Shown: positions 1 to 14,545 of the stretch, one piece after another | Position numbering within the stretch: the first letter of the stretch is position 1 | Layout of the letters: the number at the start of each line of letters is the position of its first letter | IMG/VR virus record: IMGVR_UViG_3300038393_001696 | Source: an uncultured virus (IMG/VR IMGVR_UViG_3300038393_001696) | Lineage: Duplodnaviria; Heunggongvirae; Uroviricota; Caudoviricetes | DNA length: 20,000 nucleotides | Reading direction: 5' to 3' (one strand) | Made by a program: the position numbers and the translations under genes | Notes under the pieces: model-generated | The model's input: the letters and a program-made list of their open reading frames with translations, nothing else | Told to the model about the DNA's origin: nothing | Database searches by the model: none

Positions 1-578
1 GTGTGGCCGACGAGCTGCTGCCGCGCGCGTTCCCGGTCAAGAGCGCCCTGCACGTCTGGATCGACCCGGCCAACGGCTGGCTCGCGATCGACACCGCCAA
101 CGCAGCCAGTGCGGACGGCGTGGTCAAGCTGCTGCTCAAGGCGGTCGACCGGATGCCGCTCGCATCGCTGCGCGTGGCGCATGCGCCGGTCGCGGTGATG
201 ACCGGCTGGCTCGACGCGGATGAAGCCCCGGCAGGTTTCTCGATCGACCAGGACGCCCAGCTGCGCGCCGCCGGCGAGAGTCGCGCCGAGGTCGGCTACC
301 GGCGGCACACCCTCGAACCGGACGACATGCGCCGCCACATCGCCGCCGGCAAGCAGTGCACGCGGCTGGCGCTGACCTGGAACAGCCGCATCTCGTTCGT
401 GCTGACCGAGACGCTGGCGCTGCGCGCGATCCGCCCGCTCGACGTGCTCAAGGAAGGCGCCGCGGCCGCGTACAACGACGACGAGCGCTTCGACAGCGAC
501 TTCGCGCTGATGGCCGGTGAGTATGCGCAGCTGCTGGCCGACCTGGCCGCAGCGCTGGGCGGCGAGGCAGCAACATGA
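1..578 (+). CDS. rdgC: Recombination-associated protein RdgC, phage-encoded (5'-truncated by window)
   Basis: Translation ELLPRAF...VWIDPANGWLAIDTANAASAD...MTGWL...PAGFSIDQDAQL...HIAAGKQCTRLALTWNSRISFVLTE...RFDSDFALM...LGGE matches the RdgC C-terminal half as I recall it; the frame is open from the window start. Confidence 0.9.
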   Translation, partial: VADELLPRAFPVKSALHVWIDPANGWLAIDTANAASADGVVKLLLKAVDRMPLASLRVAHAPVAVMTGWLDADEAPAGFSIDQDAQLRAAGESRAEVGYRRHTLEPDDMRRHIAAGKQCTRLALTWNSRISFVLTETLALRAIRPLDVLKEGAAAAYNDDERFDSDFALMAGEYAQLLADLAAALGGEAAT

Positions 579-793
579 GCGCGCTCGGCGGGCGCGCCGC
601 AGCGAACACCGGATTCCATTGCCCTGAATGCTACGCCAAGGGCGACCAACCGCACGCGTCGACCTGCTCGGCAGCCAAGGCGCCGGCGCCGGCGGTTATC
701 CCGCTCGGCATCTCCAATTACCAGCTCCCCGACGGTACGACGGGAAGCTCCTACACCAGCAGCACCAACCAACCACAACCAGGGAGAACCTCG

Positions 794-1570
794 ATGTCCT
801 TCGACACCGCCGAAGCAGCACCCGCCGCAGTGGACGCCACCGCTGCCGCACCGGCAGCCGCTGCCGTTGACCAGCACCTGTTCGTTACCGTCCCGGAAAC
901 CACGCTGCCGAACGGCACGGTGGTCCCGGCCTTCCAGGTCGGCCAGTACTACTGCTCGCAGGGCGCGGACGGCAAGCTCGCGATCAACGCGAGCAGCGAG
1001 CCGTGGGTCGAGATCAGCTACCACGCCGCGCGCCAGGCCTGCGCCGCCGCCGGCTACTCACTGCTGACCGAGCTGCAGGCGTTGGCGATTGCACACAACA
1101 TCGCCCAGCAGGGCGCGAACTGGAGCGGTGGACAGGTTGGCGTGGGCAACCTGCTGCAGGGCCTGCACCTCGACCCCGACGACGCCGACGAAGCCTACGC
1201 CGGCGACTACGTGCCAGCCGATCCGGCCGAGCGCCGCATGTTCGTGCTGTCGAACGGCCAGACCATCTGCGACGCGGCCGGCAATTTCTACGGCTGGGTC
1301 TTCGATGACGTCCAAGGCGACGAGAACGGTTTAGTGGCGCGCGCATTCGCTGCCGATTCGCCGTCGATCACCACGGCGCCATTCCCGTCGCTGGAGCGCG
1401 GCATGGGCTGGTATCCGAAGGCCGGCAGCGATTGGTCGGGCGCTGCGCTCCTCCGCGGCGGCTACTGGTGTTCGGACGGCGATGCCGGCGTGTTCGATCT
1501 CGACTACGGCTGGCCCGGCGACGCCTACGACTACGTGGGCTTCCGCTGCACCAAACCCATTGGTCTCTGA
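794..1570 (+). CDS. DGR target protein 1, C-type lectin / FGE-sulfatase-like fold with C-terminal variable region
   Basis: CLec/FGE motifs DAAGNFYGWV, LRGGYW, VGFRC; 3' end contains VR1, which aligns to TR. ATG 794 has SD AGGGAG at 781-786. An in-frame alternative start at 575 overlaps the rdgC stop and adds a CPEC..H..C segment. Confidence 0.88.
   Translation: MSFDTAEAAPAAVDATAAAPAAAAVDQHLFVTVPETTLPNGTVVPAFQVGQYYCSQGADGKLAINASSEPWVEISYHAARQACAAAGYSLLTELQALAIAHNIAQQGANWSGGQVGVGNLLQGLHLDPDDADEAYAGDYVPADPAERRMFVLSNGQTICDAAGNFYGWVFDDVQGDENGLVARAFAADSPSITTAPFPSLERGMGWYPKAGSDWSGAALLRGGYWCSDGDAGVFDLDYGWPGDAYDYVGFRCTKPIGL
1434..1548 (+). repeat. DGR variable repeat VR1
   Basis: 115-bp ungapped alignment to TR 3478-3592 with 14 mismatches, all at TR adenines (manual count). 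Confidence 0.95.
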
Positions 1571-1582
1571 TCCCTGGTCCCG

Positions 1583-1604
1583 GGTCGCCGCGTCAGCGGT
1601 GACC
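1583..1604 (+). promoter_or_regulatory. DGR target-recognition hairpin downstream of VR1/IMH
   Basis: GGTCGCCGC-GTCA-GCGGTGACC: 9-bp stem with one G-T pair and a 4-nt loop, starting 13 nt after the stop codon; duplicated after VR2 and absent after TR. Confidence 0.8.
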
Positions 1605-1640
1605 GATCCCGAGCCACCGACAAACGCGAGAACCGCCAAC

Positions 1641-2531
1641 ATGAAAATCGAACTCACCCAAGAGCACACCTTTACCGCCCGCGCTGGCGCCTACACGGTA
1701 CACGGCCTGCGCCGCGCCGACCAATGGGAAGGCCTGACCAAACTGGTGGACCTGTCCGAGCGCTTCCTGATCGTATCTGACAACGACGGAATCGTGGTCA
1801 AGGGCACGCCCGCGCTGCTGCGCGACCTGCGCCTGACCGCCAGCACCGACTTGTTCGTCACCGTGCCGGAAACTACGCTGCCCACCGGCCAAGTCGTGCC
1901 GTCGTTCCAGGTCGGCCAGTACCACTGTGGCAGCGACGGCGACAGCATCGCCATCCGTTCCGACTTGGTGCCGCTGGTACGCGTCAACTACCGCGACGCG
2001 AAAACGCGCTGCGTGGACGCCGGCTACCAGTTGATCACCGAACGGCAATGCCTGGCGATTGCCGTCGACATCGCCGGGCAGGACATCAACTGGACCGGCG
2101 GCAAGGTCGGGCACGGCGCGATCTACCAGGGCCTGCACCTCGGCACGGTCAGCGCTCCGCAGGCCGGCACCTACGAACCGGACGACAACGAACGCCGCTG
2201 GCACCAGCTGTCGAACGGTGCGCGCATCTACGACTTCGCCGGCAACATGTTCAGCTGGGTGTACGACGACGTGCAGGGCGACGCCGAAGGTCTGGTAAGC
2301 GCCGCGATCGAAAAGGACTCGCCGTCGCTCGCCAGCGCGCCCTACCCCAGCGAACAGAAGGGCATGGGCTACATCCCGCGCGGCCCGCTGAAGTGGTCGG
2401 GCCGTGCGCTCGTCCGCGGCGGCTGCTGGTTTTCGGACGACCGTGCCGGCGTGTTCAGTCTCGACTACGACTGGCCCGACTCCGCCAGCGTCTACGTGGG
2501 CTTCCGCTGCACCAAACCCATTGGTCTCTGA
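1641..2531 (+). CDS. DGR target protein 2, C-type lectin / FGE-sulfatase-like fold, paralog of target 1
   Basis: Shares LFVTVPETTLP.G.VVP.FQVGQY.C, QGLHL, LSNG..I.D.AGN...WV.DDVQGD..GLV and the identical C-terminus VGFRCTKPIGL with target 1. Start taken at ATG 1641 (MKIELTQ); the longer ORF-track start lies inside VR1. Confidence 0.9.
   Translation: MKIELTQEHTFTARAGAYTVHGLRRADQWEGLTKLVDLSERFLIVSDNDGIVVKGTPALLRDLRLTASTDLFVTVPETTLPTGQVVPSFQVGQYHCGSDGDSIAIRSDLVPLVRVNYRDAKTRCVDAGYQLITERQCLAIAVDIAGQDINWTGGKVGHGAIYQGLHLGTVSAPQAGTYEPDDNERRWHQLSNGARIYDFAGNMFSWVYDDVQGDAEGLVSAAIEKDSPSLASAPYPSEQKGMGYIPRGPLKWSGRALVRGGCWFSDDRAGVFSLDYDWPDSASVYVGFRCTKPIGL
2395..2509 (+). repeat. DGR variable repeat VR2
   Basis: 115-bp ungapped alignment to TR with 15 mismatches, all at TR adenines (manual count). 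Confidence 0.95.
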
Positions 2532-2543
2532 TCACTGGTCCCG

Positions 2544-2565
2544 GGTCGCCGCGCCAGCGGTGACC
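2544..2565 (+). promoter_or_regulatory. DGR target-recognition hairpin downstream of VR2/IMH
   Basis: GGTCGCCGC-GCCA-GCGGTGACC; same stem as 1583-1604, differing only in the loop. Confidence 0.8.
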
Positions 2566-2599
2566 TCCCTTAACCAGAACAATAAATAAGAAGACAACC

Positions 2600-3454
2600 A
2601 TGCAACAGGCAGCAACCCAGCACCCCACCGACGCCGAACTGAGCGGGTTCGGTATCAGCAAATTCAGGGGCATCGACATCGGCCTCGGCCAGGCCGACCC
2701 GATGACCGGCATCGCCGCCAAGCTCGAGCAGCAGTACCCGCACCACTTGGTCCTGATCCAGTGCGGCAAGTTCCTGCACGGCTTCGACCGCACCGCGCAC
2801 GCGCTCAGCACGCTGAAGGGCTACCAGCTCAAGCTGGTCGGCACGACCGATGAACCGCACCTACGCGTCGGCTTCCCGGCCGGTAACTTCAAAAGCCGGC
2901 TGTGGTCGATGGTCGAGGAATTCGGCATCCCTTACGTGGTCGCGCTGGGGACGCTGGCGCAGGGTCATACCGTCTACGTGTCGGACCAGTCCAGCCAGCA
3001 GTCGACGGTGCTCGCCGCGGTGACTCCCGAGATCGTCGCCCAGGTGATCGCGGACCTGCGCCAGCGCGGCAACCTCAACAAGGCGGCAGCGCGGCAGGTG
3101 CTGGCCAACCCGGACAGCGCCGGTTTCAAGCTGAAGCAGCAGGCCCAGGCGCTCGACCTGCAACTGCTGCAGGACATCATCAAGATGCCGCGCGACCTGC
3201 GCGTCACCTATGGCGAGAACCTGCGCGCCTGCATGGCGCGGCTGATGCGCGCCGTGTTCGCCTTTGGTCTGGACGTGAACCGGGCCGCATCGCTGCACGC
3301 GATCTCGGCCGACGTCGACCTGCTCAAGCACTATCTGGCGCAGGCTCCGCGGCTAAGCAAGCTCAAGTTCGCTTTCGAACACAGAGTGGGCTTAGCCGTT
3401 GAGCTTGGGCGCCTGGTCGGCGGCCTGATCCGCGCCGAGAAGGTGGCAGCATGA
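2600..3454 (+). CDS. avd: DGR accessory protein: N-terminal MutS domain I-like region fused to C-terminal Avd four-helix bundle
   Basis: N-half KLEQQYPHHLVLIQCGKFLHGFDRTAHALSTLKGYQL...HLRVGFP resembles MutS-I (K..yPd.lllfr.GdFYE.f..DA..as..L.i.L...maGfP). C-half MPRDLRVTYGENLR...LHAISADVDLLKHYL...ELGRLVGGLIR resembles Avd. Gene sits immediately upstream of TR. Confidence 0.8.
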   Translation: MQQAATQHPTDAELSGFGISKFRGIDIGLGQADPMTGIAAKLEQQYPHHLVLIQCGKFLHGFDRTAHALSTLKGYQLKLVGTTDEPHLRVGFPAGNFKSRLWSMVEEFGIPYVVALGTLAQGHTVYVSDQSSQQSTVLAAVTPEIVAQVIADLRQRGNLNKAAARQVLANPDSAGFKLKQQAQALDLQLLQDIIKMPRDLRVTYGENLRACMARLMRAVFAFGLDVNRAASLHAISADVDLLKHYLAQAPRLSKLKFAFEHRVGLAVELGRLVGGLIRAEKVAA

Positions 3455-3477
3455 TCAACGAAGGGGGATTTCTGGAA

Positions 3478-3592
3478 GGTCGAGCAATGCGCTCATCCGC
3501 GGCGGCTACTGGTATTCGGACGACAATGCCGGCGTGTTCAATCTCGACAACGACTGGCCCGACAACGCCAACGACAACGTGGGCTTCCGCTG
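3478..3592 (+). ncRNA. DGR template repeat (TR)
   Basis: Adenine-rich copy of VR1/VR2 (AAC/AAT/GAC triplets; 24 A) between avd and RT. It diverges from the VRs immediately after ...GTGGGCTTCCGCTG (IMH* vs IMH). Confidence 0.95.
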
Positions 3593-3699
3593 ACCCAACA
3601 ATTACATGCCTGGACGCCGAGCCGCGCGCTCGCGGGAGGTCAATTCTTGGTCGAAATCCTCTTGGGGAGTCCCCGCAAGCAGGGCCGAAGGTAGCACCC

Positions 3700-4803
3700 A
3701 TGGCCACACCGAGGACCGCGCCGGGGCCCGCGGGCGCCGGCGCGGAACGAGGCGACGCCAGCCTGTTCGTGCGCCTGACCAGCCTCGACAACCTGCACGC
3801 CTGCTGGCTGCAGGCCAAGCGCAGCAAGTCGCAAAGCCCGCGCGTGCAGCGCTTCGAGGCGGACCCGCTGCACTACCTGTTGATGATCCAGCAGCGCCTG
3901 CGCGCGCGCCAGTTTTCGTTCGGCCCGTACAAGGCGTTCACTGTGCGCGAGAAGAAGTTCCGCCAGGTGATCGACGCGCCGATGAAGGACCGCGTGGTGC
4001 ACTGGATGCTGTACCGGTACCTGCTGCCGCTCTGGCAACCGCGCTTCATCCACGACACCTACGGCAACCTGCCCGGGCGCGGCACCCACGCCGCCGTCGA
4101 TCGGCTGGCCACGTTTTGCCGCGGCGCGAACGCGCGCTGGGCACTGCAACTGGACATCTCGAAGTACTTCTACTCCGTCGGCCACGCTGTGCTGAAGGCG
4201 CGCGCGCTGCGCTACGTCGGCGACCACGACCTGCGCCAGCTGATCGCGGCACTGGTCGATTCGTTCCGTACCGACGACAGCTACGACCACCTGTTCGCCG
4301 CTGACTCGGCGTATCGGCTCACGCCGGCCAAGGGCATGCCGATCGGGAACCTCTCCAGCCAGTTGTTTGCCAACATCTTCCTGGCCGACTTCGACAGCTG
4401 GGTCAAGGGCGCGCTGCGCGTCAAGCGCTACATCCGCTACGTCGACGACCTGGTGGTCGTCGGCGAGACGCAGGCCGAGCTGCTGGATATCAAGGACGCG
4501 CTGGTTGCGCGGCTGGCCGCAGACGGCCTGACTGTCCACCCGCGCAAGGCGCGCATCGCGCCGATCGCCGCCGGCGTACCGTTCCTCGGCTACGTCGTGT
4601 GGCCGCGCCACGTCTCGGCCGGCGCCTACGTGCGCGGGCGCTACCTGCGCCGCCTGCGCGAGCACGAATCCGGCGGCTACGACCGCAGCGACACGCTGCG
4701 CGCCTATCAGGCGATGCTGGCCCATACCGGCCCCACCAATGTCCGCAGGGGCGTTCGCCACCCTGCTTTGCAACCACACCAAACCAAGGGAGAACTGCTT
4801 TGA
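3700..4803 (+). CDS. DGR reverse transcriptase
   Basis: RT motifs KDRVVH, GRGTHAAV, LQLDISKYFYSV, GMPIGNLSSQLFANIFL (DGR-type SQ), YIRYVDDL and GVPFLGY; no maturase/endonuclease extension. Start placed at ATG 3700, downstream of TR; the ORF track extends the frame to 3451. Confidence 0.93.
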   Translation: MATPRTAPGPAGAGAERGDASLFVRLTSLDNLHACWLQAKRSKSQSPRVQRFEADPLHYLLMIQQRLRARQFSFGPYKAFTVREKKFRQVIDAPMKDRVVHWMLYRYLLPLWQPRFIHDTYGNLPGRGTHAAVDRLATFCRGANARWALQLDISKYFYSVGHAVLKARALRYVGDHDLRQLIAALVDSFRTDDSYDHLFAADSAYRLTPAKGMPIGNLSSQLFANIFLADFDSWVKGALRVKRYIRYVDDLVVVGETQAELLDIKDALVARLAADGLTVHPRKARIAPIAAGVPFLGYVVWPRHVSAGAYVRGRYLRRLREHESGGYDRSDTLRAYQAMLAHTGPTNVRRGVRHPALQPHQTKGELL

Positions 4804-6266
4804 ATCTGTCACAAGAACATGGAACGGGCGACGCCGCCCTGGCCGTAACCGCGACCGACGTACCGGGCCGGCGCACCAAGGCGCAAATCATTGCGCTGGC
4901 CAACGCCGTTGGCATCGACACGGACACCGAAGGCGATATCTGGGGTAGCACGAACGGCGCGCTGCTGAAGTTCGCTGATGCGCTGCTCGACGCCCACCTC
5001 GCGCACCGGTCTCAGGACGCTCCAATGGCGAATGAGCGGACAGACTTTGAGCGATGGGCCTTGGATGAGCAAGTTGCCTATCGCGACGTCCAGCACGGCC
5101 TTTGCTTCTACGATGCAGGGTCTGGCGCACACCAATGGATCGGATGGCAAGCACGCGCCAGATTCGGGGCTCCAGCTCAGGGCGCCGAAGCGCAAGCAGA
5201 GCGCGCGGCAGTGCCGGAAGGGTGGAAGCTCGCCTTGCACGCTGCTGTGTCGGCTATCTACTTCGATGACTCGTCTGACTACAAATCGGCGCTCGGCGCG
5301 GTTGTGAGCAATCTGGACGCGAACCTCGCTGGCGAGTTGCTCGGCAGCCCGAAGGCCGCATACGACAAGGCATGCGCACTACTCGCCGCCCCTGTTCCAG
5401 CAGTCGCGCAGGAAGACGAACGGCAAGCTGGCCGCGACCTGAACAACACTCCCTGCCCGAAGTGCGGCCGGCGCACTGGTGTTCACACGCAGGAGGATTG
5501 GGAAGAGTGCTTTGGCGTCAAGACGCCTCCAGATGAGGAAGAGGAGGGCGAGCAGGTCGCGCCCGATGATGGCATGTTCTCGTCGGACTGGAAAGACGGC
5601 TACTCAGTCGGGTTCCAGGCCGCGAAAAAGCTATCCTCTCCTGCCGCCGCCAGCTCCGAGAGCGTCGATACGCCGGAATTGCGCCGCTTGCTCTACACGT
5701 TGTCGTGCACAACCGGCGCGGAGAACAAGGAAATCGAGCGTCGCATCATCGCCCACATCGAATCCCTGATCGCTGCGCGGGTAGCTGGAGCACAGGCCGC
5801 GCCTACCGACCTGTCGAAGCGCTTGCGTGCCTACGCCGAGGGTAGCCCGAGATTTCAACAAACGCTGCTACCAACGCGCGACCTGCTCGCAGCCTGCGAC
5901 GAGATCGACCGCTACTACGGCGGCATGATGGCTTGGAAGCAGACGGCCGAGAAGAAGGATCGCGACTGGTACGCCGAGCGCATGGACCGGATCAACGACC
6001 GCATCGCCTTCCGAAATTCCGAAGCACAGGCCGCGCCTGATGCGGTGCGGGATGGCCTTGAAGCACTGCTCATCGAGCGCCGGATCGCCATCACGCCGGA
6101 ATACGAAGGCGGCTTCCATGCTGCGATTTACGGCGAAGAGGAAGCGCCCCAGTCCAAAGGATTTGGCAAAAAGCCGAGTGAAGCTGTCAGCAATGCGATC
6201 AATAGCACCCCGGCAGGCGACAGCCAGCCCGCTGTGGGCGCAGCAGGTCAGGAAGGCGGTGCGTGA
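4800..6266 (+). CDS. Hypothetical mosaic phage early protein
   Basis: Long ORF with likely TTG start at 4800 overlapping the RT stop (TTGA) and SD AAGGGAG at 4786-4792. Short domains are joined by Ala/Pro linkers; one CPKC motif. Start uncertain. Confidence 0.65.
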   Translation: MNLSQEHGTGDAALAVTATDVPGRRTKAQIIALANAVGIDTDTEGDIWGSTNGALLKFADALLDAHLAHRSQDAPMANERTDFERWALDEQVAYRDVQHGLCFYDAGSGAHQWIGWQARARFGAPAQGAEAQAERAAVPEGWKLALHAAVSAIYFDDSSDYKSALGAVVSNLDANLAGELLGSPKAAYDKACALLAAPVPAVAQEDERQAGRDLNNTPCPKCGRRTGVHTQEDWEECFGVKTPPDEEEEGEQVAPDDGMFSSDWKDGYSVGFQAAKKLSSPAAASSESVDTPELRRLLYTLSCTTGAENKEIERRIIAHIESLIAARVAGAQAAPTDLSKRLRAYAEGSPRFQQTLLPTRDLLAACDEIDRYYGGMMAWKQTAEKKDRDWYAERMDRINDRIAFRNSEAQAAPDAVRDGLEALLIERRIAITPEYEGGFHAAIYGEEEAPQSKGFGKKPSEAVSNAINSTPAGDSQPAVGAAGQEGGA

Positions 6267-6655
6267 TGGGGCACGCGACTGAACTTGAGCGCGTCAAAGC
6301 CGCCAAGGTGACGCACCGTTGCTCCTGGTGCGCCGAGAAGATTAATGTTGGCTCCCCATACTCCCGATACCGCTACTTCGACGGTGGCGATGCCGGGACG
6401 GTAAAGCTGCACCCAGAGTGCCACGAAGTGCTGGATGAAACCGTGCGCGAGGAGGGCTACGACTACGAGTTTTACCCGGGCGAAAACCCGCGCGGCTGTA
6501 ATTGCGGACACAGCCATGGCTGCCCGACATGCGAGGAGCGGAAGCACAAAGCCCCCGCCCAGCAGGCAGACGACAGCCAGAAAGCCACAACGAAAGAGAA
6601 ATTCGACTGCTGCGACGGCGAGTGCCCCGTATGCATGAGCGAAGGCCAAATCTAA
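6263..6655 (+). CDS. Cys/His-rich hypothetical phage protein (putative zinc-binding)
   Basis: HRCSWC...HPECH, CNCGHSHGCPTC and CCDGECPVC motifs; start overlaps the upstream stop (GTGA). Confidence 0.65.
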   Translation: MMGHATELERVKAAKVTHRCSWCAEKINVGSPYSRYRYFDGGDAGTVKLHPECHEVLDETVREEGYDYEFYPGENPRGCNCGHSHGCPTCEERKHKAPAQQADDSQKATTKEKFDCCDGECPVCMSEGQI

Positions 6656-6663
6656 GGACAACC

Positions 6664-6921
6664 ATGACCGACAAGACCACCATGACCAACCCGCAAAAGA
6701 ATATTGATGAAGCGATGGTGAGAGAGGCGCTGAAAGCTGTCGCGATCATCCCACGGCTGAAAGTCGAAGAGCGCGGGCCGTACCTGAGTGCGCTCCTGGC
6801 GATTTCGTACAAGCTTCTGCGCACGGTCGAGGGCGACGAATTCGTGCGCGGCTGGCTGGAATCCGCCCTGCACGAAGTGACGACCGAGGCACCGGACGTT
6901 GCCATCAACGAACTGCACTGA
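6664..6921 (+). CDS. Hypothetical phage protein
   Basis: SD TAAGGA just before ATG 6664; fills the gap in a tightly packed + strand operon. Confidence 0.6.
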   Translation: MTDKTTMTNPQKNIDEAMVREALKAVAIIPRLKVEERGPYLSALLAISYKLLRTVEGDEFVRGWLESALHEVTTEAPDVAINELH

Positions 6922-6931
6922 GGACTGACAC

Positions 6932-8155
6932 ATGGCCGACCAGACCACCACCACCGCAGGCATCGACCTGGACAAGCTGGAAGCACTGGATGCTAATCCG
7001 CTCTACGAAGCGTTGAAGCTCGCGCTTGGAAACCTCGCTCTGCACGACCACAAAGAGGCAAGCCGCATCGGTGCCATGGTCCGTCAGGCGATGACGTGCG
7101 TGAGCGAACAGGCGGACGAGCGGGCGTTGTTTGAGGCTTGGTATCGCAAGCGCTACAGCGTGCCTGCTTGGGCACCCCTGAATTTCCCGGATGTGCCGAA
7201 TGCATGGGAAGTATGGCAGGCCCGCGCCGCCCTCACCCAGAAAGTCGCGCCCGAAGCACCGGTCGCACCATGTGTTCCGGGTGGTGTGGCGAAGCTACTT
7301 CGCCATCTTCGAGAGGAGGGAATCTTGAGTGAAGGCCAGATAACCAAGGCGCTTGGCGTTGACCGCCTGACGTGCCGTGAGATTTTGGATGAAGTTGCCA
7401 TTACCGCACCGGCCACCCAGCAGGCAGGAGCGGCAGATTGCCACGCAAGCTGCGGCTATATCGGTGCCGAGTGCGACTTCCCGCAGTGCAAAAGCCGCGC
7501 CCCAGTCCCTGCGGCCACCACAGCAAGCTCCCTGCCCCTCATCACCGATGCCGACCTGCCAGCGACACTCGAGCCTGGCTTCTACCTTGTGGGAGTCACG
7601 CTCAAGGGCGAACGCACCCCAGCACCAGCCACCACGGCAAGCGCGAGCGGGGTAATCGGCGCGGGCGATCCAGAGGCGTTCTTTTGGGAGTTCTGCGAGA
7701 AGCAGGGCTACCCCAGCGATAGCGATATGGACGATGCGCTGCGTGCTTCATTTTATGAAGGAATCCGCTATTGCGCAGTGCATACCCCGGCCCCAACACC
7801 CAGCCGTGAGGCTGCGCCGCTGGACGACGCTGTAATCCGCAAGGTGCTGCTCAAGCATCTTGGCTGGCTTGGGTCGGCAGGGTGGGGCGATGATATCAAA
7901 GCCATCTGTGCCGACCTCCGCGCCGCGCTCGCCCAGCAGGGCGCAGGACACGCAGCGCAGGCTGGGGCGGATGCCGAGCGAGAGGTGACCTGGCGCAAGG
8001 CACGCGATGACGCGTGCGCCCGCAGCGAGAAGCCGCCGTTGGGGCCGCTGCCGAGCGAAAGTTACCGCGCATTGTGGGAATCCATCAACGGCCCCGGCAG
8101 CTGGGACGCCAACCCATGGGTGTGGGTGGTCGAATTCAAGCGGGTGCAGCCATGA
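6932..8155 (+). CDS. Hypothetical mosaic phage early protein
   Basis: SD GAGGA; 407 aa with Ala/Pro/Thr linkers. Ends in [28 protein letters not shown], a C-terminus I recognise from ASCH-like phage proteins. Confidence 0.7.
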
Positions 8156-8293
8156 ACCCGCTCATCGCCCTGTGGCTGTGGTGGCTGATGTGGCAGCCGC
8201 AGGATGAGAGGAAGGACCAGGCATGAGCCGCCAGCACCTGCGGCGCGCGGCCGAATCGGCGAAGCAGCCACGAAGTGATGGGAGAAATGAGAA

Positions 8294-8521
8294 GTGAGCG
8301 ACATGTTTCTCAGCGGTGAGGAGCTAAGCAGCATGACCAACCGGGTCCAGCATAAAGCCCAGGCCAAGATGTTACGATCCATGGGCGTGGAGTTTCGCAC
8401 CCGCGCCGACGGTACGCTGGCGGTGCTCCGCGCCCACGTCGACAAGGTATTCGGCAACGCCGCCGAGTCGGTGCCGAAGAAGAAATCGTTTCAACCGAAC
8501 TGGGATGGTGTCAATGCCTAG
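8294..8521 (+). CDS. DUF4224-family putative excisionase / recombination directionality factor
   Basis: MFLSGEELSSMTNRVQHKAQAKMLRSMGVEFRTRADGTLAVLR...PNW pattern; overlaps the integrase start. GTG 8294 or ATG 8303. Confidence 0.8.
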   Translation: MSDMFLSGEELSSMTNRVQHKAQAKMLRSMGVEFRTRADGTLAVLRAHVDKVFGNAAESVPKKKSFQPNWDGVNA

Positions 8522-9581
8522 GAAGCGCAACAAGGAAAATGCGGGCTTGCCGGCGCGCTGGAAGGCCGAGCACGGCGCCTACTACTACCAGGTGCCGCCG
8601 GGGCTGGAAGACCGCTGGGACGGGAAGAAGAAATTCCGGCTCGGTGCAACACTGCCGGAGGCCTATGCGGAATGGGCGCGCCGGCTGCAGGACGTCGACG
8701 GGGCAAAGACCATCGGCGCCCTGCTCGACCGCTATGCGCTGGAGGTCGTGCCAACCAAGAACGTGCGCACTCAGGTCGAGAACAACCGCGCGATCCGCAA
8801 CCTGCGCGCCGTGTTCGGCGACGCCCCGCTCACATGGCTCAAGCCGCAGCACGTCTACCAGTACGTCGACCGCCGCAAGGCGACCCCGGTGGCGGCGCAT
8901 CGCGCGGTCGACGTCCTGTCGCATGCGTACACCAAGGCGGTCGAGTGGGGCTACGTCGACCGCCACCCATTCAAGGGCGAGGTGCGCCTGCAGGGCGAAA
9001 AACCGCGCGACCGCTACGTCGAGGACTGGGAACTGGTCGAGTGCCTGGCGCTCGACAGCAAGCGCAAGAAAGGCAGCGTGCTGATGATCCAGGCCTACAT
9101 CCGGATCAAACTGCTGACCGGCCTGCGCCGCGGCGACCTGCTGCGCCTGAAGACCGCCGACCTGCAGGACGACGACGGCATCCACGTCACGCCGCGCAAG
9201 ACCGAGCACAGCACAGGCAAGCGCCAGATCATCGAATGGTCGCCCGAGCTGCGCGAGGCGATCGCGACGGCCAAGGAGGCCAGGCCGGTCGACATCGCGC
9301 CGTGGCTGTTTTGCACGCGTAAGGGCGAGGGCTACATCGACGAGGAGAAAGGCACCGCCAGCGGTTGGGACTCGATGTGGCAGCGCTTCATGGAACGGGT
9401 ATTGAAGGAAACCAAGGTCACCGAGCGCTTCACCGAGCACGACCTGCGTGCCAAATGCGCAAGCGATGCCGAGTCGCTCGAGCATGCTCGCGCCTTACTG
9501 GCGCATGCAGACAGCCAGTTGACGCAGCGGGTTTACCGACGCCGCCCGGAGCGTGTAAAGCCCGGAAAACTCAGCATTTGA
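8514..9581 (+). CDS. int: Tyrosine recombinase / phage integrase
   Basis: Catalytic motifs TGLRRGD (R), RKT (K), HDLR (HxxR), LLAH (H), RVYRR (Y); N-terminal MPRKR..LP arm-binding-type region; lies between xis-like gene and att site. Confidence 0.93.
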   Translation: MPRKRNKENAGLPARWKAEHGAYYYQVPPGLEDRWDGKKKFRLGATLPEAYAEWARRLQDVDGAKTIGALLDRYALEVVPTKNVRTQVENNRAIRNLRAVFGDAPLTWLKPQHVYQYVDRRKATPVAAHRAVDVLSHAYTKAVEWGYVDRHPFKGEVRLQGEKPRDRYVEDWELVECLALDSKRKKGSVLMIQAYIRIKLLTGLRRGDLLRLKTADLQDDDGIHVTPRKTEHSTGKRQIIEWSPELREAIATAKEARPVDIAPWLFCTRKGEGYIDEEKGTASGWDSMWQRFMERVLKETKVTERFTEHDLRAKCASDAESLEHARALLAHADSQLTQRVYRRRPERVKPGKLSI

Positions 9582-9594
9582 TTCCGGCAAAGCG

Positions 9595-9975
9595 CTATCC
9601 GAAGTGGCGTGAGAGGAAGTGGTGTTGACCCGCCTTAGTCAAAACACTTTCACCGAGCGCATTGCTATTAAGCTGGTAATAACGCTGGCAAAAGTCAATC
9701 ACTGCCGCCCCAAGTGACTCTTTAGGTGCCACTTTGGCGCACATCCAGTCCAAGCGTGAACCATCGAAATTAAGTCGCATGAACCGACGACGAGAGTCGC
9801 CGTTGCATGCCAGCAAGTCAAGGACCACCACCCCTTGGAAACGTTTTCGGACAAGATCGCGCTCCACCGCCTCCATGTATTCATCGGGCCGCGTACTATC
9901 GAGCGAAAAGCAGACGAGCTCGTTGCTCGTCCCCGGGGCCTTCGCTAGCGCATAGTGCTTTTTCGATATAATCAT
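9595..9975 (-). CDS. rnlB: RnlB/LsoB-family antitoxin
   Basis: 126 aa; G.VVLDLLACNG...RF.....DG and ..L.ESVL pattern like E. coli RnlB (FDLLCANG..NRF); start overlaps the toxin stop (ATGA). Confidence 0.8.
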   Translation of the reverse strand: MIISKKHYALAKAPGTSNELVCFSLDSTRPDEYMEAVERDLVRKRFQGVVVLDLLACNGDSRRRFMRLNFDGSRLDWMCAKVAPKESLGAAVIDFCQRYYQLNSNALGESVLTKAGQHHFLSRHFG

Positions 9976-11018
9976 GGGCTCATTGCTGATGCAGTTTTTT
10001 CGATATTGTTCAAAACCTCGTGGATGATTCCAACGGCAGCTGCTTTATCGTCGAGTATGCGCGACATTTCAACGTTGGCCTCGACGTGGAACAAGCTGTG
10101 ACGGTGCTTATGATACAGGTTGTAGGATTTTTCCACAGCGGCAACAGTGTGGGGGCAATCCATCTTTTGCCGGACAGATGGTTTAAGCGTGCCGCCATCG
10201 ACTAAGTAGTCGCCAAAGCCGACCGTGTTTCGCACTGAGTAGCCATGTCGCGCCATGATGACCTTCATGTACGCTTCCAGTCCCTTAAGGGCGGGAAACG
10301 CGAAGGCCGAATAATCGGGTAGCTGCACCGCCAGCTTTGCCAGGGCAAGCGAAGGCGCAATAATAGCAGCACCGGCATCGCCTAATAGACCCATAGCACT
10401 CGGAATCCACTGCCGGAGCTCCTCAAGAAGGTCGGTGGACGTAACACCTTCAACATGAAAAGACTTCAGCTGAGCGTCAACGACCTGCTTCTTATCGGGC
10501 GTCACTTCACATAATATCTGAGCGACAATCCCGTAGACCTCTCTGGCCTTACCTTGCATCAAGAATTTGCCAGTATTGTACAGGTGCAACACAACTTCAT
10601 CGCCAATGCCTTTTTTGACGCGAAATCGTTGGCCGTGCTCGAGCGGCTCCTCGCCCACCTCGAACTTCCAGTCATGCTTGAGATGCTCAATCAGAAACCG
10701 AAAATCTTCCACGCCCAGCTTTGCAAGGACAAGTGGGCGGGGTTCATATTCGGTCCTTAGACATCCGGCCGCGATGACCTCTGCCGCCTTATATGACAGG
10801 TGCTGATTCGCGCCAACCTTATAGTGCAGCGTTGTCGTGCCGTCGACCTTGTGAAAAATCTGCAGCGTAGCGGGCTGCTGACCGACCGCCTCGACTTTGT
10901 ATTCGACAAACTTCTCTTTCGTAGTCGGCCCCAGAACTGCGACGCCAGCCAGTCCGGAGCGCAGTACGTCATCGATACGTTCTTTATCGAGAAAAATGCC
11001 TTTGAAATTGTTCGTCAT
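9972..11018 (-). CDS. rnlA: RnlA/LsoA-family HEPN endoribonuclease toxin
   Basis: 348 aa; DGTTTL, YNTGKFLMQGK, LPDYSAFAFPALKGLEAYMK and HEPN RHSLFH (Rx4H) motifs typical of RnlA/LsoA. Confidence 0.85.
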   Translation of the reverse strand: MTNNFKGIFLDKERIDDVLRSGLAGVAVLGPTTKEKFVEYKVEAVGQQPATLQIFHKVDGTTTLHYKVGANQHLSYKAAEVIAAGCLRTEYEPRPLVLAKLGVEDFRFLIEHLKHDWKFEVGEEPLEHGQRFRVKKGIGDEVVLHLYNTGKFLMQGKAREVYGIVAQILCEVTPDKKQVVDAQLKSFHVEGVTSTDLLEELRQWIPSAMGLLGDAGAAIIAPSLALAKLAVQLPDYSAFAFPALKGLEAYMKVIMARHGYSVRNTVGFGDYLVDGGTLKPSVRQKMDCPHTVAAVEKSYNLYHKHRHSLFHVEANVEMSRILDDKAAAVGIIHEVLNNIEKTASAMSP

Positions 11019-11135
11019 GCCGGCTCAACGTGGAAAAAATCGATGGATAGTTCAGGAATTATATGGCTGGTTGACGATCGGAAATCTATCGAAATGTCAC
11101 GCGACGGTGACGCGTTGGAATTACCGCGACAACTC

Positions 11136-11396
11136 GAATAGCGCAACGCGGATTGAATAGCGCAGCGCCCTAAAAAAACATTGGCCTGCGTAAGCGCAAT
11201 CCTTTGATTTCACTCACTTTTTTGGCCTGCCCAGCTGGGTTCGAACCAGCGACCCTCAGCTTAGAAGTCAGACTTTCCAACGAGAAAAACCGGTATGTTT
11301 TCAATGACTTAGCGCCGTTTGGGTGCGCTATTGGATGGCGCTAGGCTCATGTATAAGTGCTTGATTTGATTGAGGCCCATGCCGTTGAATAGCGCA
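11136..11396. repeat. attP arm-type integrase-binding repeats and IHF-like sites
   Basis: GAATAGCGCA at 11136-11145, 11155-11164 and 11387-11396; inverted TGCGCTATTG at 11324-11333. WATCAANNNNTTR matches on the - strand at 11197-11209 and 11354-11366; 1-mismatch copy on + at 11299-11311. Confidence 0.78.
11223..11267 (-). other. Phage attachment-site core: 3' half of tRNA-Arg(TCT)
   Basis: Reverse complement is CTTCTAA-GCTGA-GGGTC-GCTGG-TTCGAAC-CCAGC-TGGGCAG-G-CCA: anticodon loop, T-arm, acceptor 3' strand and CCA. The 5' half (D-arm, 5' anticodon stem) is absent. Confidence 0.88.
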
Positions 11397-11435
11397 GAAA
11401 AACTGGCACTTCCCAAGGTCGGCGGACGCGCTAGC

Positions 11436-11726
11436 TCAGCCCGGCAACACGACCGCACGCCATTCCTGCACATACCCAGCGCCGTCCGAACCCTTCTCGT
11501 AGCCGCGGAACAGCATGCCATTGCCGTGCATGGTAACGAGCTCTGCTTGATACAGGATCGGGACGATGGGCTTCATCTGCTGGTCGTTGCGGGCAGCCAG
11601 GTTCAGTTGGATGACTCCGGCCACCGAGGCAAGCGTCAGGTCGCCGGTGGCGCCCGGGTCACTATCGATGTCGTGGTCGCTGCGGCGCTTGCCGCGCTCG
11701 CGGAGGCGGGTGATGGTGACGTACAT
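11436..11726 (-). CDS. Small hypothetical protein (96 aa)
   Basis: MYVTITRLRERGKRR...LYQAELVTMHGNGMLFRGYE....YVQEW reads as a compact globular protein; extended -10-like TGCTACACT just upstream of the ATG. Confidence 0.65.
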   Translation of the reverse strand: MYVTITRLRERGKRRSDHDIDSDPGATGDLTLASVAGVIQLNLAARNDQQMKPIVPILYQAELVTMHGNGMLFRGYEKGSDGAGYVQEWRAVVLPG

Positions 11727-11755
11727 GGGCGCGAGTGTAGCACTGTTGACCCAGC

Positions 11756-12700
11756 TCACCCTGAACCCACCACCCAATAGCGCTTGATCACGGGATGCCG
11801 CAGGGTTCCGCCGTGCGTCCATTCCGTGAACGCAACCCGTGCGTGCAGCAGCGGCCGGACCCAATACACGCCCCTCTCTTGTCCAGTCGCGCCGGGGACC
11901 GATGGCGGCGCTGGGATATGGCTGAACGCGGCGAGCAATTCGCGCCGCTGGCCGTCGCTCAGGCCTGAGCCGACCGAGCCGACATAGCGCAGCCCTTCTT
12001 CCCCGGCACACATCGCTAGCAGCAGGGATCCGACGCCCACGCGCGACCGGGTGTACCCAACGATCACGAATTCGTCGACCAGGCCGCACTTAAGCTTAAT
12101 CCAGGCGTGCGAGCGGCGCGACACGTATGGCGCGTCCTTGCGCTTGCCGACGATCCCCTCGAGGCCGATGTCGCATGCGGCACGCAACATCTCGGCCGGG
12201 TCGCCGGCCAGCGGTGCACTGAACTGGACGACGCGCTGAGGCACGTTCGGCAGCACCAGCGAGAGCAGCCGGCGGCGTTCGTCAAGCGGGCAGGCGCGCA
12301 GGTCGTGGCCCGCCAGCCAGGGGCAGTCGAACAGGTAGTAGGTGATGCGCTCGCTTCGGCGCGCGTCGATCGACTGCTGGAGCAGCCCGAAGTCTGGCAG
12401 CCCGCGGTCGTTCAGCACGACGATCTCGCCGTCATAAAAGCCGCTCGGCAAGCAGAGCCTAGCCAGCGAACGGCGCAAGCACTCGAGATCGGCAGTCCAG
12501 TCGTGGCCGTTGCGGGTAAACAGCCGGATGCCGTTGCCAGCCACGCGGGCGAGCATGCGGTAGCCATCGAGCTTGATTTCCCAGACCCACTCGTCGGGCG
12601 TCGCCGGCGCGGCGTGTGCGAGCGTTACCAGCTGCGGCGCGAGGCGGGTCGGTAACGGCGCGGCGACGGCGGACGAAGGCATGGACGGGACGCGGGGCAT
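11756..12700 (-). CDS. ATP-dependent DNA ligase (stand-alone LigD ligase domain)
   Basis: Motif I EIKLDGYR; DGEIV, YYLFD, GLEGIVGKR..APYVSRRSHAWIKLK; OB-fold YVGSVGSG and FTEWT..GTLRHPV. Confidence 0.9.
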   Translation of the reverse strand: MPRVPSMPSSAVAAPLPTRLAPQLVTLAHAAPATPDEWVWEIKLDGYRMLARVAGNGIRLFTRNGHDWTADLECLRRSLARLCLPSGFYDGEIVVLNDRGLPDFGLLQQSIDARRSERITYYLFDCPWLAGHDLRACPLDERRRLLSLVLPNVPQRVVQFSAPLAGDPAEMLRAACDIGLEGIVGKRKDAPYVSRRSHAWIKLKCGLVDEFVIVGYTRSRVGVGSLLLAMCAGEEGLRYVGSVGSGLSDGQRRELLAAFSHIPAPPSVPGATGQERGVYWVRPLLHARVAFTEWTHGGTLRHPVIKRYWVVGSG

Positions 12701-12778
12701 GTTCGCTCCTGATCAGGCCCAAGCGTACTCCTTTCGCCGTTCGTTTTTGGCGTTCTACGAAACCGCCATGTGATCGCC

Positions 12779-13093
12779 TCAGTCGGCCTTCCCGCACTGC
12801 TTTCGCTCGACCTTGTCCTTCGCCTTGGCGTCGGCGCGGGTCTGCCATTGCAGGTTGGGCAGGTCGTCGAGCGCCAAGCGCTCGGCCTCGGTCTTTGCGC
12901 AGGCCAAGGCAATCTTGTGGTCGACCACATAACCGGCACAAATCCCAGAGGTGCGGCCGGTGGCCGGGCATGGGACGGTGGCACGGAAAAGCCGGATGAT
13001 TTTAGGGTTGCGCTTGAGCCTCCCGAAGTCATCTCTGGCCGGCGCCTGCGCGTGGGCGAGGACCGGCAACAGGAGCAAGACAAGTAGCTTCAT
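12779..13093 (-). CDS. Signal-peptide-bearing HNH-like small protein
   Basis: MKLLVLLLLPVLAHA signal peptide; PCPATG...C.GYVVDH.I.L.C....D...NLQWQT is HNH-like. Confidence 0.7.
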   Translation of the reverse strand: MKLLVLLLLPVLAHAQAPARDDFGRLKRNPKIIRLFRATVPCPATGRTSGICAGYVVDHKIALACAKTEAERLALDDLPNLQWQTRADAKAKDKVERKQCGKAD

Positions 13094-13234
13094 GCGCGCA
13101 TTCTAGAAGCCCGTCCCGGCGCCCCTTTTGCGAACACGCAGTTCGCTTGACCTGCCGCCGAGCTCGCCTTGACGGTTAACAAGTTGGCGTAAACACAAGC
13201 ATGCGAGGATGCCTCATCACATTACGGAGGCAAC

Positions 13235-13726
13235 ATGGCAGCAGATTTCTACCTGCAGATCGAAGGCATCAAGGGCGAGTCGTCGGACTCGAAGCACGCC
13301 GGCTGGATCGAATGCATGTCGGTCAACTGGGATATCCGGCAACCAAAATCGGCCACGGCTTCGACCGGCGGTGGTCACACCGCTGAGCGCGCCGAGCTCA
13401 GCGACATCAGCATAGCCAAGCTGGTTGACCTGTCCTCGCCCATCCTGGCGCAGCATTGCGCGATGGGGAAGACGATCCCGAAGGCGAAGCTGGAAATGCA
13501 ACGCGCTGACGGGCAGGGGCAGCCGATAAAGTATTTCGAGGTCGAGCTCGAGAACGTACTAATCTCGCACATCGCGCCGAGCTTCGACGGCGGTGGGCAG
13601 CCAATGGAGAATTTGGGCTTGAAGTTCTCGAAGGTACGCTGGCGCTACACGCAGCAAAAGGTGGGCGGCGGCGCCAGCGGCAACACGGCCGGTGGCTGGG
13701 ATCTGGCCACGAACAGGTTTGCATGA
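13235..13726 (+). CDS. hcp: Type VI secretion tube protein Hcp
   Basis: DFYLQIEGIKGES.DSKH.GWIE, SDISIAKLVDLSSPIL, YFEVELENVLIS, ENLGLKFSKVRWRYTQQ, GWDLATN; SD GGAGG. Confidence 0.95.
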   Translation: MAADFYLQIEGIKGESSDSKHAGWIECMSVNWDIRQPKSATASTGGGHTAERAELSDISIAKLVDLSSPILAQHCAMGKTIPKAKLEMQRADGQGQPIKYFEVELENVLISHIAPSFDGGGQPMENLGLKFSKVRWRYTQQKVGGGASGNTAGGWDLATNRFA

Positions 13727-14076
13727 TGCGCGCGCTCATTCTTTTGGCGCTCGCGCTGCCGGCTTACGCCGCGCCGGTCGGGACCCATCCATTCCCGTGG
13801 ATGACCGGCGAGCAGCTACTGCGCAAGCTGGACCGACCGGCGAGCCAGATCGACGCTGCGGCGACATCAGCCTACCTGCAGGGCGTGATGGACGCCACCG
13901 CTGACCGTGAATGGTGCTACAGCGCGACCAAACCCGGTACCAACCAGGTGCAGCCGGTGCTGACGGACAAGCTGCGCGCGCTGCCACCGGCGCAGGTGCG
14001 CCAGAGCGCGGCGGTGCTGGCGGTGCAGGCGTGGCGAGAGAAGTGGCCTTGCACTGCGGGGTGCTGCCATGCATAG
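13723..14076 (+). CDS. Rap1a/Tai-family T6SS amidase immunity protein (periplasmic)
   Basis: Signal peptide; TGEQLL...AYLQGVMDA...WC...AAVLAVQAWREKWPC pattern; overlaps both hcp and the effector gene. Confidence 0.8.
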   Translation: MMRALILLALALPAYAAPVGTHPFPWMTGEQLLRKLDRPASQIDAAATSAYLQGVMDATADREWCYSATKPGTNQVQPVLTDKLRALPPAQVRQSAAVLAVQAWREKWPCTAGCCHA

Positions 14077-14545
14077 ACCACTCTATGCTGTCCTGCGAAG
14101 CAAGTATCCCGACAGGCGCTCCGTCAGCGCCGAGGAAATCTACCGGTGGATCGGCTACCCGCCCGAGTACGCGAGCGACGCGCGCTGGGCGAATACCTGC
14201 GCGGTCCGGATGAGCCTCGCACTAGTGCGCTGCGGGGTGCCGGTGCCGGGACGGCTGCGCGTGCTGGCCGGCGAGTGCAAGGGCAAGCTGCTCGAGCCGG
14301 GGCAGGCGAACCTTTCGCACATGCTGGTGCGCCTGTGGGGCGCGCCGGAAAAGTACCAAGGTGGCCCGGCGGCGATTAAGGGCATCGGCAGCCGGCGCGG
14401 CGTGATCAGCTTCTACCGCCTCTGGAACCCGAGGGACCCGCAAGGGCATATCGACATGGTGGCACCGTGGGGTATCAACGACCTGGCATGTGAGGAGGAC
14501 TGCTACTGGCTGTCGTCGGAGGTGTGGTTCTGGCCGCTGAAGTAG
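14069..14545 (+). CDS. tae4: Tae4-family T6SS peptidoglycan amidase effector
   Basis: Catalytic NTCAVRMSLAL (Cys) and GHID (His); GVISF and C-terminal EVWFWPLK. Confidence 0.88.
   Translation: MHRPLYAVLRSKYPDRRSVSAEEIYRWIGYPPEYASDARWANTCAVRMSLALVRCGVPVPGRLRVLAGECKGKLLEPGQANLSHMLVRLWGAPEKYQGGPAAIKGIGSRRGVISFYRLWNPRDPQGHIDMVAPWGINDLACEEDCYWLSSEVWFWPLK

Follow-up and report, generated by a model that had tools for sequence, protein, structure and literature searches.

A very probably active diversity-generating retroelement of a temperate phage, with one template repeat, two variable repeats and a fused MutS-like/Avd accessory gene

We analyzed a 20,000-nucleotide stretch of DNA (the window) of an uncultured virus of the Caudoviricetes, IMG/VR record IMGVR_UViG_3300038393_001696, and found that it almost certainly carries a complete and currently active diversity-generating retroelement (DGR) of a temperate phage. 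The cassette follows an RdgC gene on the plus strand and is made up, in this order, of two paralogous target genes whose products have a lectin fold (targets 1 and 2), an accessory gene in which a MutS-like half is fused to an Avd half, a template repeat (TR), a structured spacer and a reverse transcriptase (RT) gene with a YVDD motif. Each target gene carries a variable repeat (VR1 and VR2) at its 3' end. The differences between the TR and the VRs are confined to template adenines, and both VRs turn over naturally on a genome that is otherwise nearly invariant.

A repeat search of the window returned one three-copy repeat family, at 1433-1604, 2394-2565 and 3477-3648, within which the TR and the two VRs lie. 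When the TR was compared without gaps with each VR over 115 nt, 14 mismatches were found in VR1 and 15 in VR2, and all 29 of them fell on adenines of the TR. The TR (C37 G34 A24 T20) is the sole copy that retains all 24 A; were the mismatches scattered at random over the 115 positions, all of them would land on these 24 A with a hypergeometric probability of 5.5e-12 (VR1) or 5.5e-13 (VR2). Nine of the adenine sites are changed in both VRs, five in VR1 only, six in VR2 only and four in neither, and at three of the nine co-mutated sites the two VRs carry the same letter (3483 A>G, 3549 A>T and 3576 A>T). In the reading frame of both targets, the 24 A fall in 17 codons, all at codon position 1 or 2, and the third base of these codons is always C or T, so that stop codons cannot arise in the VRs. 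The variant space of each target is 4^24 = 2.81e14 at the DNA level and 1.79e14 at the protein level. The initial annotation, made from the letters by eye, had claimed a gapless alignment of 115 bp with 14 and 15 mismatches at adenines only, 24 A in 17 codons with pyrimidine third bases and no possible stop, about 2.8e14 variants per target and only three substitutions common to both VRs (AGC>GGC and two AAC>TAC). Every one of these numbers was reproduced by computation, and re-alignment found no non-adenine mismatch within the 115 nt of either VR. Upstream of TR position 3478 the homology ends; the A at 3476-3477 could still belong to the repeat, and 3475 is a non-A mismatch. An exact scan for the TR pattern, with A read as N, gave no match in collections of metagenome contigs and genome contigs; in viral contigs it found three copies in each of two contigs and no further VR there.

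The nearest virus record, G001, was aligned to positions 1-13,856 of the window, and the two differ at 38 of these 13,856 bases. Thirty-five of the 38 differences are at positions that face a TR adenine, 17 in VR1 and 18 in VR2, and the remaining three are at 13037, 13241 and 13666; in the first 6,400 bases, differences occur only inside the VRs. The rate of difference is about 0.15 per VR base, compared with about 0.0002 per base elsewhere. Two IMG/VR contigs carry the same cassette. The TR of G001 and of both contigs does not differ from that of the window at any position. One of the two contigs has VRs identical to those of G001. The other, L006 (positions 1006-7038 of IMGVR_UViG_3300037423_001656), has a VR2 that is wholly of the G001 type and a VR1 that is a mosaic, following G001 as far as repeat position 48 and the window from position 62 onward; this VR1 differs from the VR1 of G001 at 8 positions. 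Because L006 combines a G001-type VR2 with a different VR1, VR1 and VR2 change separately. Across four VR versions taken together, none of the 24 A sites has stayed unchanged.

Sixteen public sequencing runs from soil, rhizosphere and plant metagenomes (13 study codes) hold the stretch or part of it, and the contigs of four of them (X2, X3, X4 and X12) were compared with the window. Run X3 contains a contig with window-type VR1 (0 differences, depth 5.5) beside one of the G001 type (17 differences, depth 8.7), and its VR2 is of the G001 type only. Run X4 contains a G001-type VR1 contig and another VR1 with 15 differences. In run X12 there are two contigs of VR2, one differing at 18 positions and one at 15. 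In run X2, one major contig (depth 34.8) matches the window over the 5' part of VR2 and breaks off at 2436, and the next one (depth 46.5) begins at 2504. Between them, at 2437-2503, only low-depth fragments were found; the 3' part of VR2 may be present in many variants in this sample. The TR showed no other letters in runs X2, X3 and X4, as read from 2,922-nt contigs over 2504-3800. Differences recorded at 1883-1895 came from contigs with the flank of target 1 that were aligned again to the paralogous stretch of target 2, and those at 2229-2248 from short, mostly high-depth contigs on a conserved stretch, which probably come from other organisms.

Taken together, these data show that the two VRs change much more rapidly than the remaining genome, and do so separately. 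The initial annotation had proposed that both targets were independently and recently retrohomed, and had named VR variation among related phages or reads as the thing to look for. That proposal is borne out by the 35 of 38 differences at VR positions facing TR adenines, by the invariant TR and by the separate change of VR1 and VR2, and the variation itself was found both between records and, in contigs, inside single runs. Partial conversion tracts are hinted at by the mosaic VR1 and by the break between the VR2 contigs of run X2; the latter, next to a fixed 5' part of VR2, would suggest tracts anchored at the 3' end. A conversion of this kind could also explain the step between the G001 version and the mosaic VR1.

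The three substitutions shared by VR1 and VR2 had been suggested to reflect selection for Gly, Tyr and Tyr. This appears to hold for the Gly but for neither Tyr. In the window phage, all 5 VR versions have GGC where the TR has the codon AGC (3483). In the family of related elements described below, 13 VRs (counting the window's two) have a TR with A at the equivalent site, and 12 of them carry G; for 23 further VRs, G is already present in the TR. Gly is at least 90% conserved at this column among 37 targets. The shared Gly thus looks selected or fixed, and either it is selected or the site lies at the edge of the transferred tract. At the two Tyr codons, other VR versions carry S/D and D/S; the shared Tyr are not conserved there and fit chance. 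The changed letters in the VR versions of the window phage are G in 38, T in 14 and C in 11 of 63 cases. Common selection behind all three shared substitutions was rejected, as agreement at 3 of 9 sites is at the chance level, a level that is higher still with a G-rich spectrum.

The RT of the cassette matches Pfam RVT_1 (1.1e-20, 74.7 bits, cut-off 29.6) and phrog_1423 (6e-94), and contains IGNLSSQ, which we take to be a DGR signature. Residues ~176-281 of the accessory protein match nearly full-length Avd profiles in three libraries, among them phrog_3206, 'Avd protein of DGR' (1.5e-05; PHROGs has no curated cut-off), and residues 169-284 are modelled as a four-helix bundle whose match to 2rld (Z 10.2) is within the range common for helical bundles. 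Avd accessory proteins occur in most, but not all, DGRs. The coordinates of the cassette and its surroundings are collected in Table 1.

Table 1. Features of the window (positions counted from its first letter)
Feature	Position	Strand	Description
RdgC-family gene	3-578	+	directly upstream of target 1
Target gene 1	575..1570	+	331 aa from ATG 575, or 258 aa from ATG 794
VR1	1434..1548	+	variable repeat, 3' end of target gene 1; 115 nt
IMH-like 3' boundary of VR1 (putative)	1535..1554	+	A-free GTGGGCTTCCGCTG, then CA + CCAA
GC-rich hairpin after VR1	1583..1604	+	GGTCGCCGC, loop GTCA, GCGGTGACC; one G-T pair
Target gene 2	1641..2531	+	296 aa; small beta-rich N-terminal domain, then FGE/C-type-lectin-fold domain
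VR2	2395..2509	+	variable repeat, 3' end of target gene 2; 115 nt
GC-rich hairpin after VR2	2543..2566	+	GGGTCGCCGC, loop GCCA, GCGGTGACCT
Accessory gene	2600..3454	+	284 aa; MutS-domain-I-like N-terminal half fused to Avd four-helix bundle
TR	3478..3592	+	template repeat, non-coding, between accessory gene and RT gene; 115 nt
TR-RT spacer	3593..3699	+	107 nt; stem-loops ~3608-3640 and 3663-3675
Reverse transcriptase	3700..4803	+	367 aa; YVDD catalytic motif, IGNLSSQ; starts 107 nt after TR
488-aa ORF	4800-6266		TTG start overlaps RT stop; strong AAGGGAGAA ribosome site
Integrase	8505-9581		downstream of cassette, after three ORFs without informative matches
RnlA/RnlB-type toxin-antitoxin pair (RNase LS family)	9595-11018	-	right after integrase
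Type VI secretion trio	13235-14545		Hcp 1.2e-40, Rap1a immunity protein 1.1e-12, Tae4 amidase effector 5.6e-11

Several points weigh against an intact and working DGR of the simple kind. The best NCBIfam match of the RT is a group II intron RT (111 bits, cut-off 300), and the libraries used, NCBIfam included, hold no DGR-RT model. Two of the Avd matches of the accessory protein lie below their cut-offs: Pfam bAvd (E 1.6e-04, residues 194-278, 22.5 bits against 40) and NCBIfam DivGenRetAVD (2e-06, 28 bits against 80). The run data are assembled contigs rather than reads, so that rare variants are lost and depths and frequencies are rough, and the related records and runs may stem from one sampling campaign and are then not fully independent. 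Among the sequencing runs that hold the stretch, no RNA run was found. The step from the mosaic VR1 to the window version would need recombination or patchy repair on top of a simple 3'-anchored conversion.

These points have to be weighed against what other explanations would predict. If the cassette were a fossil, which once diversified the VRs and is now inactive, the VR differences would be old. The window taken by itself is compatible with such a history, and nothing specific speaks for it. The comparison with G001 speaks against it, with 35 differences in the VRs and 3 in the other ~13,600 aligned bases, as do the two VR versions inside single runs, the intact RT, accessory and target ORFs and VRs that are free of non-A drift. 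We therefore consider the fossil explanation very improbable and close to refuted. It could also be supposed that there is no retroelement at all and that ordinary paralogous repeats diverged by point mutation, gene conversion or an assembly that mixed strains. The target genes are indeed true paralogues (73% identity over ~740 nt, the VRs excluded), chimeras can arise in metagenome assemblies, and one VR1 is a mosaic. Random mutation, however, would not confine all 29 differences to the 24 A in a repeat of 115 positions (~5e-12 and ~5e-13) and would not hold a non-coding copy, the TR, invariant across records, and strain mixing would leave differences outside the VRs, where none is present in the first 6,400 bases. 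This explanation is improbable in the extreme and is already refuted by the adenine specificity.

Both VRs and the TR end in the A-free 14-nt GTGGGCTTCCGCTG, which is followed by CA-CCAA in both VRs and by AC-CCAA in the TR, and the AC (TR)/CA (VR) pair recurs in those relatives whose TR/VR comparison extends beyond CGCTG. This pattern fits a putative IMH. A GC-rich hairpin follows each VR, as is typical of BPP-1-like elements but not of every DGR. The one after VR2 is present in the minimum-energy fold of 2510-2600 (z -3.73) and in a hairpin scan; for the stretch after VR1, the minimum-energy fold picks another pairing, and the hairpin itself is readable in the sequence. No GC-rich hairpin was found after the window's TR by the strict rule. 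Among 40 VRs of the family, such hairpins (3-4 nt loop) follow 37 by a loose rule and 34 by the strict rule, compared with 80 of 2000 random stretches of the same loci, and their stems vary among relatives by compensatory changes. Plain terminators were considered and rejected, because no T run follows either hairpin.

The spacer between the TR and the RT gene is conserved in an alignment of 19 family members, and of the 26 pairs predicted in its consensus fold, 10 still pair where both partners have changed. Folded alone, the spacer of the window gave no signal (z +0.71), and the structure is seen only in the family alignment. TGACC at the end of the TR (3591-3595) is complementary to an invariant GGTCG (3649-3653); these pairs never vary, and such invariance says nothing for or against pairing. 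GGTCG also begins the TR and both VRs.

Boundary elements, hairpins and spacer all fit the model of mutagenic retrohoming established for Bordetella phage BPP-1, from which we draw the following scheme by analogy. The TR and the downstream spacer would be transcribed, and the YVDD RT, together with the Avd-type accessory protein, would copy the TR into cDNA and misincorporate opposite template adenines. In each event, the cDNA would then take the place of the homologous VR (115 nt) in one of the two paralogous target genes, at its 3' end. The direction of transfer may be set by the 3' boundary, that is, by the A-free stretch, then CA in the VRs versus AC in the TR, and then the hairpin, which follows only the VRs. 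The outcome would be two small FGE-type C-type-lectin-fold proteins in which a binding surface is redrawn at 17 codons, with ~1.8e14 variants each. The biochemical steps of this scheme are taken over from BPP-1, and the role of boundary and hairpins and the function of the targets are inferred.

Both VRs stop 22 nt short of the stop codons of their target genes and thus encode the C-terminus of each protein. The C-terminal domain of target 1 is FGE/C-type-lectin-like, with matches to Pfam FGE-sulfatase (E 0.002, 18.3 bits, below the 23.3 cut-off), phrog_2889 (6.5e-24) and phrog_9572 (1.7e-17). Target 2, which is 52% identical to target 1 in the alignment, matches FGE-sulfatase above the cut-off (5.2e-06, 26.7 bits), and its structure model (mean pLDDT 92.7) was matched by Foldseek to FGE (2q17, 1e-07), TaqVP (5vf4, 8.6e-07) and Mtd (1yu0-1yu4, ~1e-05), the latter two being solved DGR variable proteins. 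Among predicted viral structures, the same model is best matched by lectin-fold tips; the proteins that carry them are named tail fibre or tail collar fibre. A language-model search for look-alikes of the N-terminal 70 residues of target 2 returned only unnamed clusters (<=0.78). Two starts are candidates for target 1: ATG 575 overlaps the stop of the upstream RdgC gene and would add 73 N-terminal residues with a Cys-rich stretch and a low-complexity linker, and ATG 794 has the better ribosome site, AGGGAGA.

We asked what these proteins might do for the phage, and binding of a ligand or receptor is the function that we favor, with modest confidence. Viral DGR targets are reported to be mostly tail proteins (Roux et al. 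2021, PMC8144416), and the placement of the cassette is unlike this usual picture. In the window, the RdgC-family gene precedes it and the integrase is found downstream of it. We also scanned the genes flanking the cassettes of 10 relatives against PHROGs (66 proteins, 8 of L072 and 58 of the nine further loci L016, L022, L038, L045, L047, L050, L051, L060 and L064). The families found were RecE-like, Erf, SSB, Gam, RdgC, methyltransferase, ParB, repressor and integrase, with endolysin, spanin and a late activator in addition at L038; no tail family was found beside the cassette in the window or among these 66 flanking proteins. This early recombination and lysogeny location, with no tail gene near, argues against a role as tail fibre.

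It is therefore conceivable that the mechanism is the same and that the targets are non-structural binders from the early or lysogenic block, which would bind, for example, variable host or competitor factors. Besides the position of the cassette in the window and in the relatives, the small size of the proteins (~230-330 aa) and the fact that no tail-attachment domain was recognised in them point in this direction. On the other side are the tail-fibre and tail-collar-fibre-named tips among the best viral structural matches, the matches to Mtd and TaqVP, and the predominance of tail proteins among viral DGR targets (Roux et al. 2021, PMC8144416), and gene position is weak evidence for the timing or location of a protein. 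We regard non-virion targets as possible but rather unlikely, and keep ligand or receptor binding as the favored function.

The remainder of the window marks it as part of a temperate phage. Downstream of the cassette, the integrase is followed by the RnlA/RnlB pair, an ATP-dependent ligase, the type VI secretion trio, an SbcD-like exonuclease and a lysis cassette. The 488-aa ORF that overlaps the end of the RT gene has no match in Pfam, PHROGs or NCBIfam, and it is probably not part of the DGR, because the gene at this position differs among relatives. With respect to the type VI secretion genes, two of the three differences from G001 outside the VRs, 13241 and 13666, lie inside the Hcp ORF (13235-13726), and the third, 13037, lies ~200 nt upstream of it.

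The accessory protein is unusual in its N-terminal half. Residues 27-133 of its structure model, which is of middling confidence (pLDDT 69.5), align with domain I of MutS/MSH proteins (Z 11-12.6, rmsd 2.3-3.5 over ~100 residues), and every PDB match listed by Foldseek (ranks 1-49) is a MutS/MSH chain. At the sequence level, the match to Pfam MutS_I (E 0.0059) is below the cut-off, and there is a weak ungapped alignment of 69 residues with Taq MutS (E 0.53). In this alignment, the invariant Phe58 falls on the Phe of G-D-F-Y-E of MutS and the invariant His60 on its Glu, and the motif G-K-F-L-H is invariant where MutS has G-x-F-x-E. The Phe and Glu of this motif contact the mismatch in MutS, the Phe by stacking, and PDB titles that name E38 mutants of E. 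coli MutS agree with this role. A search with the alignment profile of the accessory protein against PDB sequences gave no significant match (best E 0.18, unrelated), so that the link to MutS comes from the fold and a weak single-sequence alignment.

The fusion itself is conserved across the family. It is encoded by one ORF of 281-285 aa, without an internal stop, in 20 of 20 relatives aligned. A wider search found 391 clusters of 90% identity at E <=1e-05; among the 120 listed, the proteins are 250-297 aa long, and the source names of those listed are hypothetical, four-helix-bundle or MutS. No paper on a MutS-like/Avd fusion was found in a literature search that left bioRxiv preprint supplements outside. 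Loss of host mutS is reported in a preprint to raise DGR mutagenesis 5- to 10-fold in Bacteroides (bioRxiv 10.1101/2024.11.15.621889), and by analogy an anti-repair role for the fused module would be plausible. The MutS-like module might bind mismatched cDNA/VR heteroduplex and shield it from host mismatch repair, which would fit the very high VR turnover of the window phage. A joint reading can be built on this, namely a distinct DGR type of betaproteobacterial phages in which Avd is fused to a MutS-like anti-repair module and the targets are non-virion proteins. If it were true, the targets would be small stand-alone lectin-fold binders of the early block and the element would diversify a non-virion function. 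As a whole, we hold this combination to be doubtful.

Relatives of the RT were found in 49 viral loci, and TR/VR pairs were looked for in 48 related viral loci (L013-L060), some of which are incomplete upstream and some duplicates. Two VRs were found in 21 of these, one in 21 and none in 6, and an A-specific TR/VR pair adjoins the RT in 42 of the 48. Across 23 loci with 37 VRs, TR adenines account for 562 of the 568 mismatches; 22 of the 48 related loci were entered for this count, and duplicates, truncated loci and further single-VR loci were left out. The changed letters are G in 332, T in 149 and C in 81 cases. RT relatives with 63-72% identity are present in genomes of Undibacterium, Telluria, Duganella, Solimicrobium, Thauera, Aromatoleum and other Burkholderiales and Rhodocyclales, which points to the host range. 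Prophages of Undibacterium, Duganella and Solimicrobium (RT identity 66-70%), among them those of Undibacterium arcticum, Duganella sp. BJB476 and Solimicrobium silvestre, make these genera candidate hosts. A megablast search of positions 1-9600 of the window against a GenBank phage collection gave no match.

Among known systems, the DGR of BPP-1 (mtd-avd-TR-brt; architecture B1, Wu et al. 2018, PMC5758913) has the same order of target, accessory, TR and RT on one strand, and its supplementary row gives 23 A in the TR and a 'strong' stem-loop. In both BPP-1 and the window, the VR encodes the C-terminus of a protein with a C-type-lectin fold, TR and VR differ specifically at adenines, the 3' boundary is GC-rich and free of A, a short-loop GC hairpin follows the VR, and the carrier is a temperate phage of Betaproteobacteria. 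The two differ in that BPP-1 has one target, the tail-fibre protein Mtd, whereas the window has two adjacent paralogous targets of ~260-330 aa with FGE-type lectin folds, and in that the accessory protein of the window is 284 aa long with an extra MutS-domain-I-like half. The BPP-1 DGR lies at the end of the tail genes, whereas the cassette of the window lies among early and lysogeny genes.

A closer relative appears to be the DGR of Sideroxydans lithotrophicus ES-1, CP001965.1_1972697_1973665 (row 60 of Supplementary Table S1, Wu et al. 2018, PMC5758913). Its table row gives the order TG-AVD-TR-RT, a CLec1/FGE-sulfatase target, two targets and a strong stem-loop, as in the window, together with a TR of 114 nt containing 20 A and an 'AVD' entry 846 nt long (281 aa). 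No other Betaproteobacteria row of the table looks like the family of the window. Unlike in the window, the second target is listed 6.7 kb away and not adjacent, and the long accessory is entered simply as AVD. Judged by this row, which shows the same features, the ES-1 DGR most likely belongs to the same family as the cassette of the window, so that the family is already catalogued.

A MutS-domain-I-related accessory protein is also found in Msl-containing DGRs (architecture D of Wu et al. 2018; the Bacteroides elements Bfr, Bth and Bun of bioRxiv 10.1101/2024.11.15.621889), in which Msl and Avd are described as separate genes. The supplementary table of Wu et al. 2018 (PMC5758913) has 16 DGRs with MutS-like (MSL) accessory genes, all with separate MSL and AVD ranges. 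As listed there, these come from Bacteroidetes, Vibrio/Shewanella/Photobacterium and Firmicutes/Tenericutes, with mostly CLec2 (DUF1566) targets and one adjacent target each, and no Betaproteobacteria row of that table has an MSL entry. Since the window and its family have a single ORF (284 aa in the window) in place of separate genes, the window represents a fused variant and not a standard member of architecture D.

The use of one TR for two VRs is already known, and in this respect the window is a canonical two-target DGR. Two targets are given for 50 of 372 DGRs (~13%) in the data of Wu et al. 2018 (PMC5758913). In a two-target phage DGR described in 2023 (PMC10743442), one TR likewise serves two lectin-fold targets. 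According to that description, those targets differ in topology, one of them being a 'tentaclin' with Ig domains, whereas the targets of the window are close paralogues that differ mainly in their short N-terminal part.

The value of the window phage lies in near-identical genomes that differ almost only at the template-adenine positions of two VRs, and further in the several VR versions that coexist in single samples, with hints of partial conversion. The fused MutS-like/Avd accessory protein and the early-region location of the cassette add to its interest. The question of the MutS-like module is timely, as host MutS is reported to suppress DGR mutagenesis in Bacteroides (bioRxiv 10.1101/2024.11.15.621889). 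The phage and its relatives in cultured hosts are suited to the study of how one template is shared between two targets, of the length of conversion tracts and of the MutS-like module.

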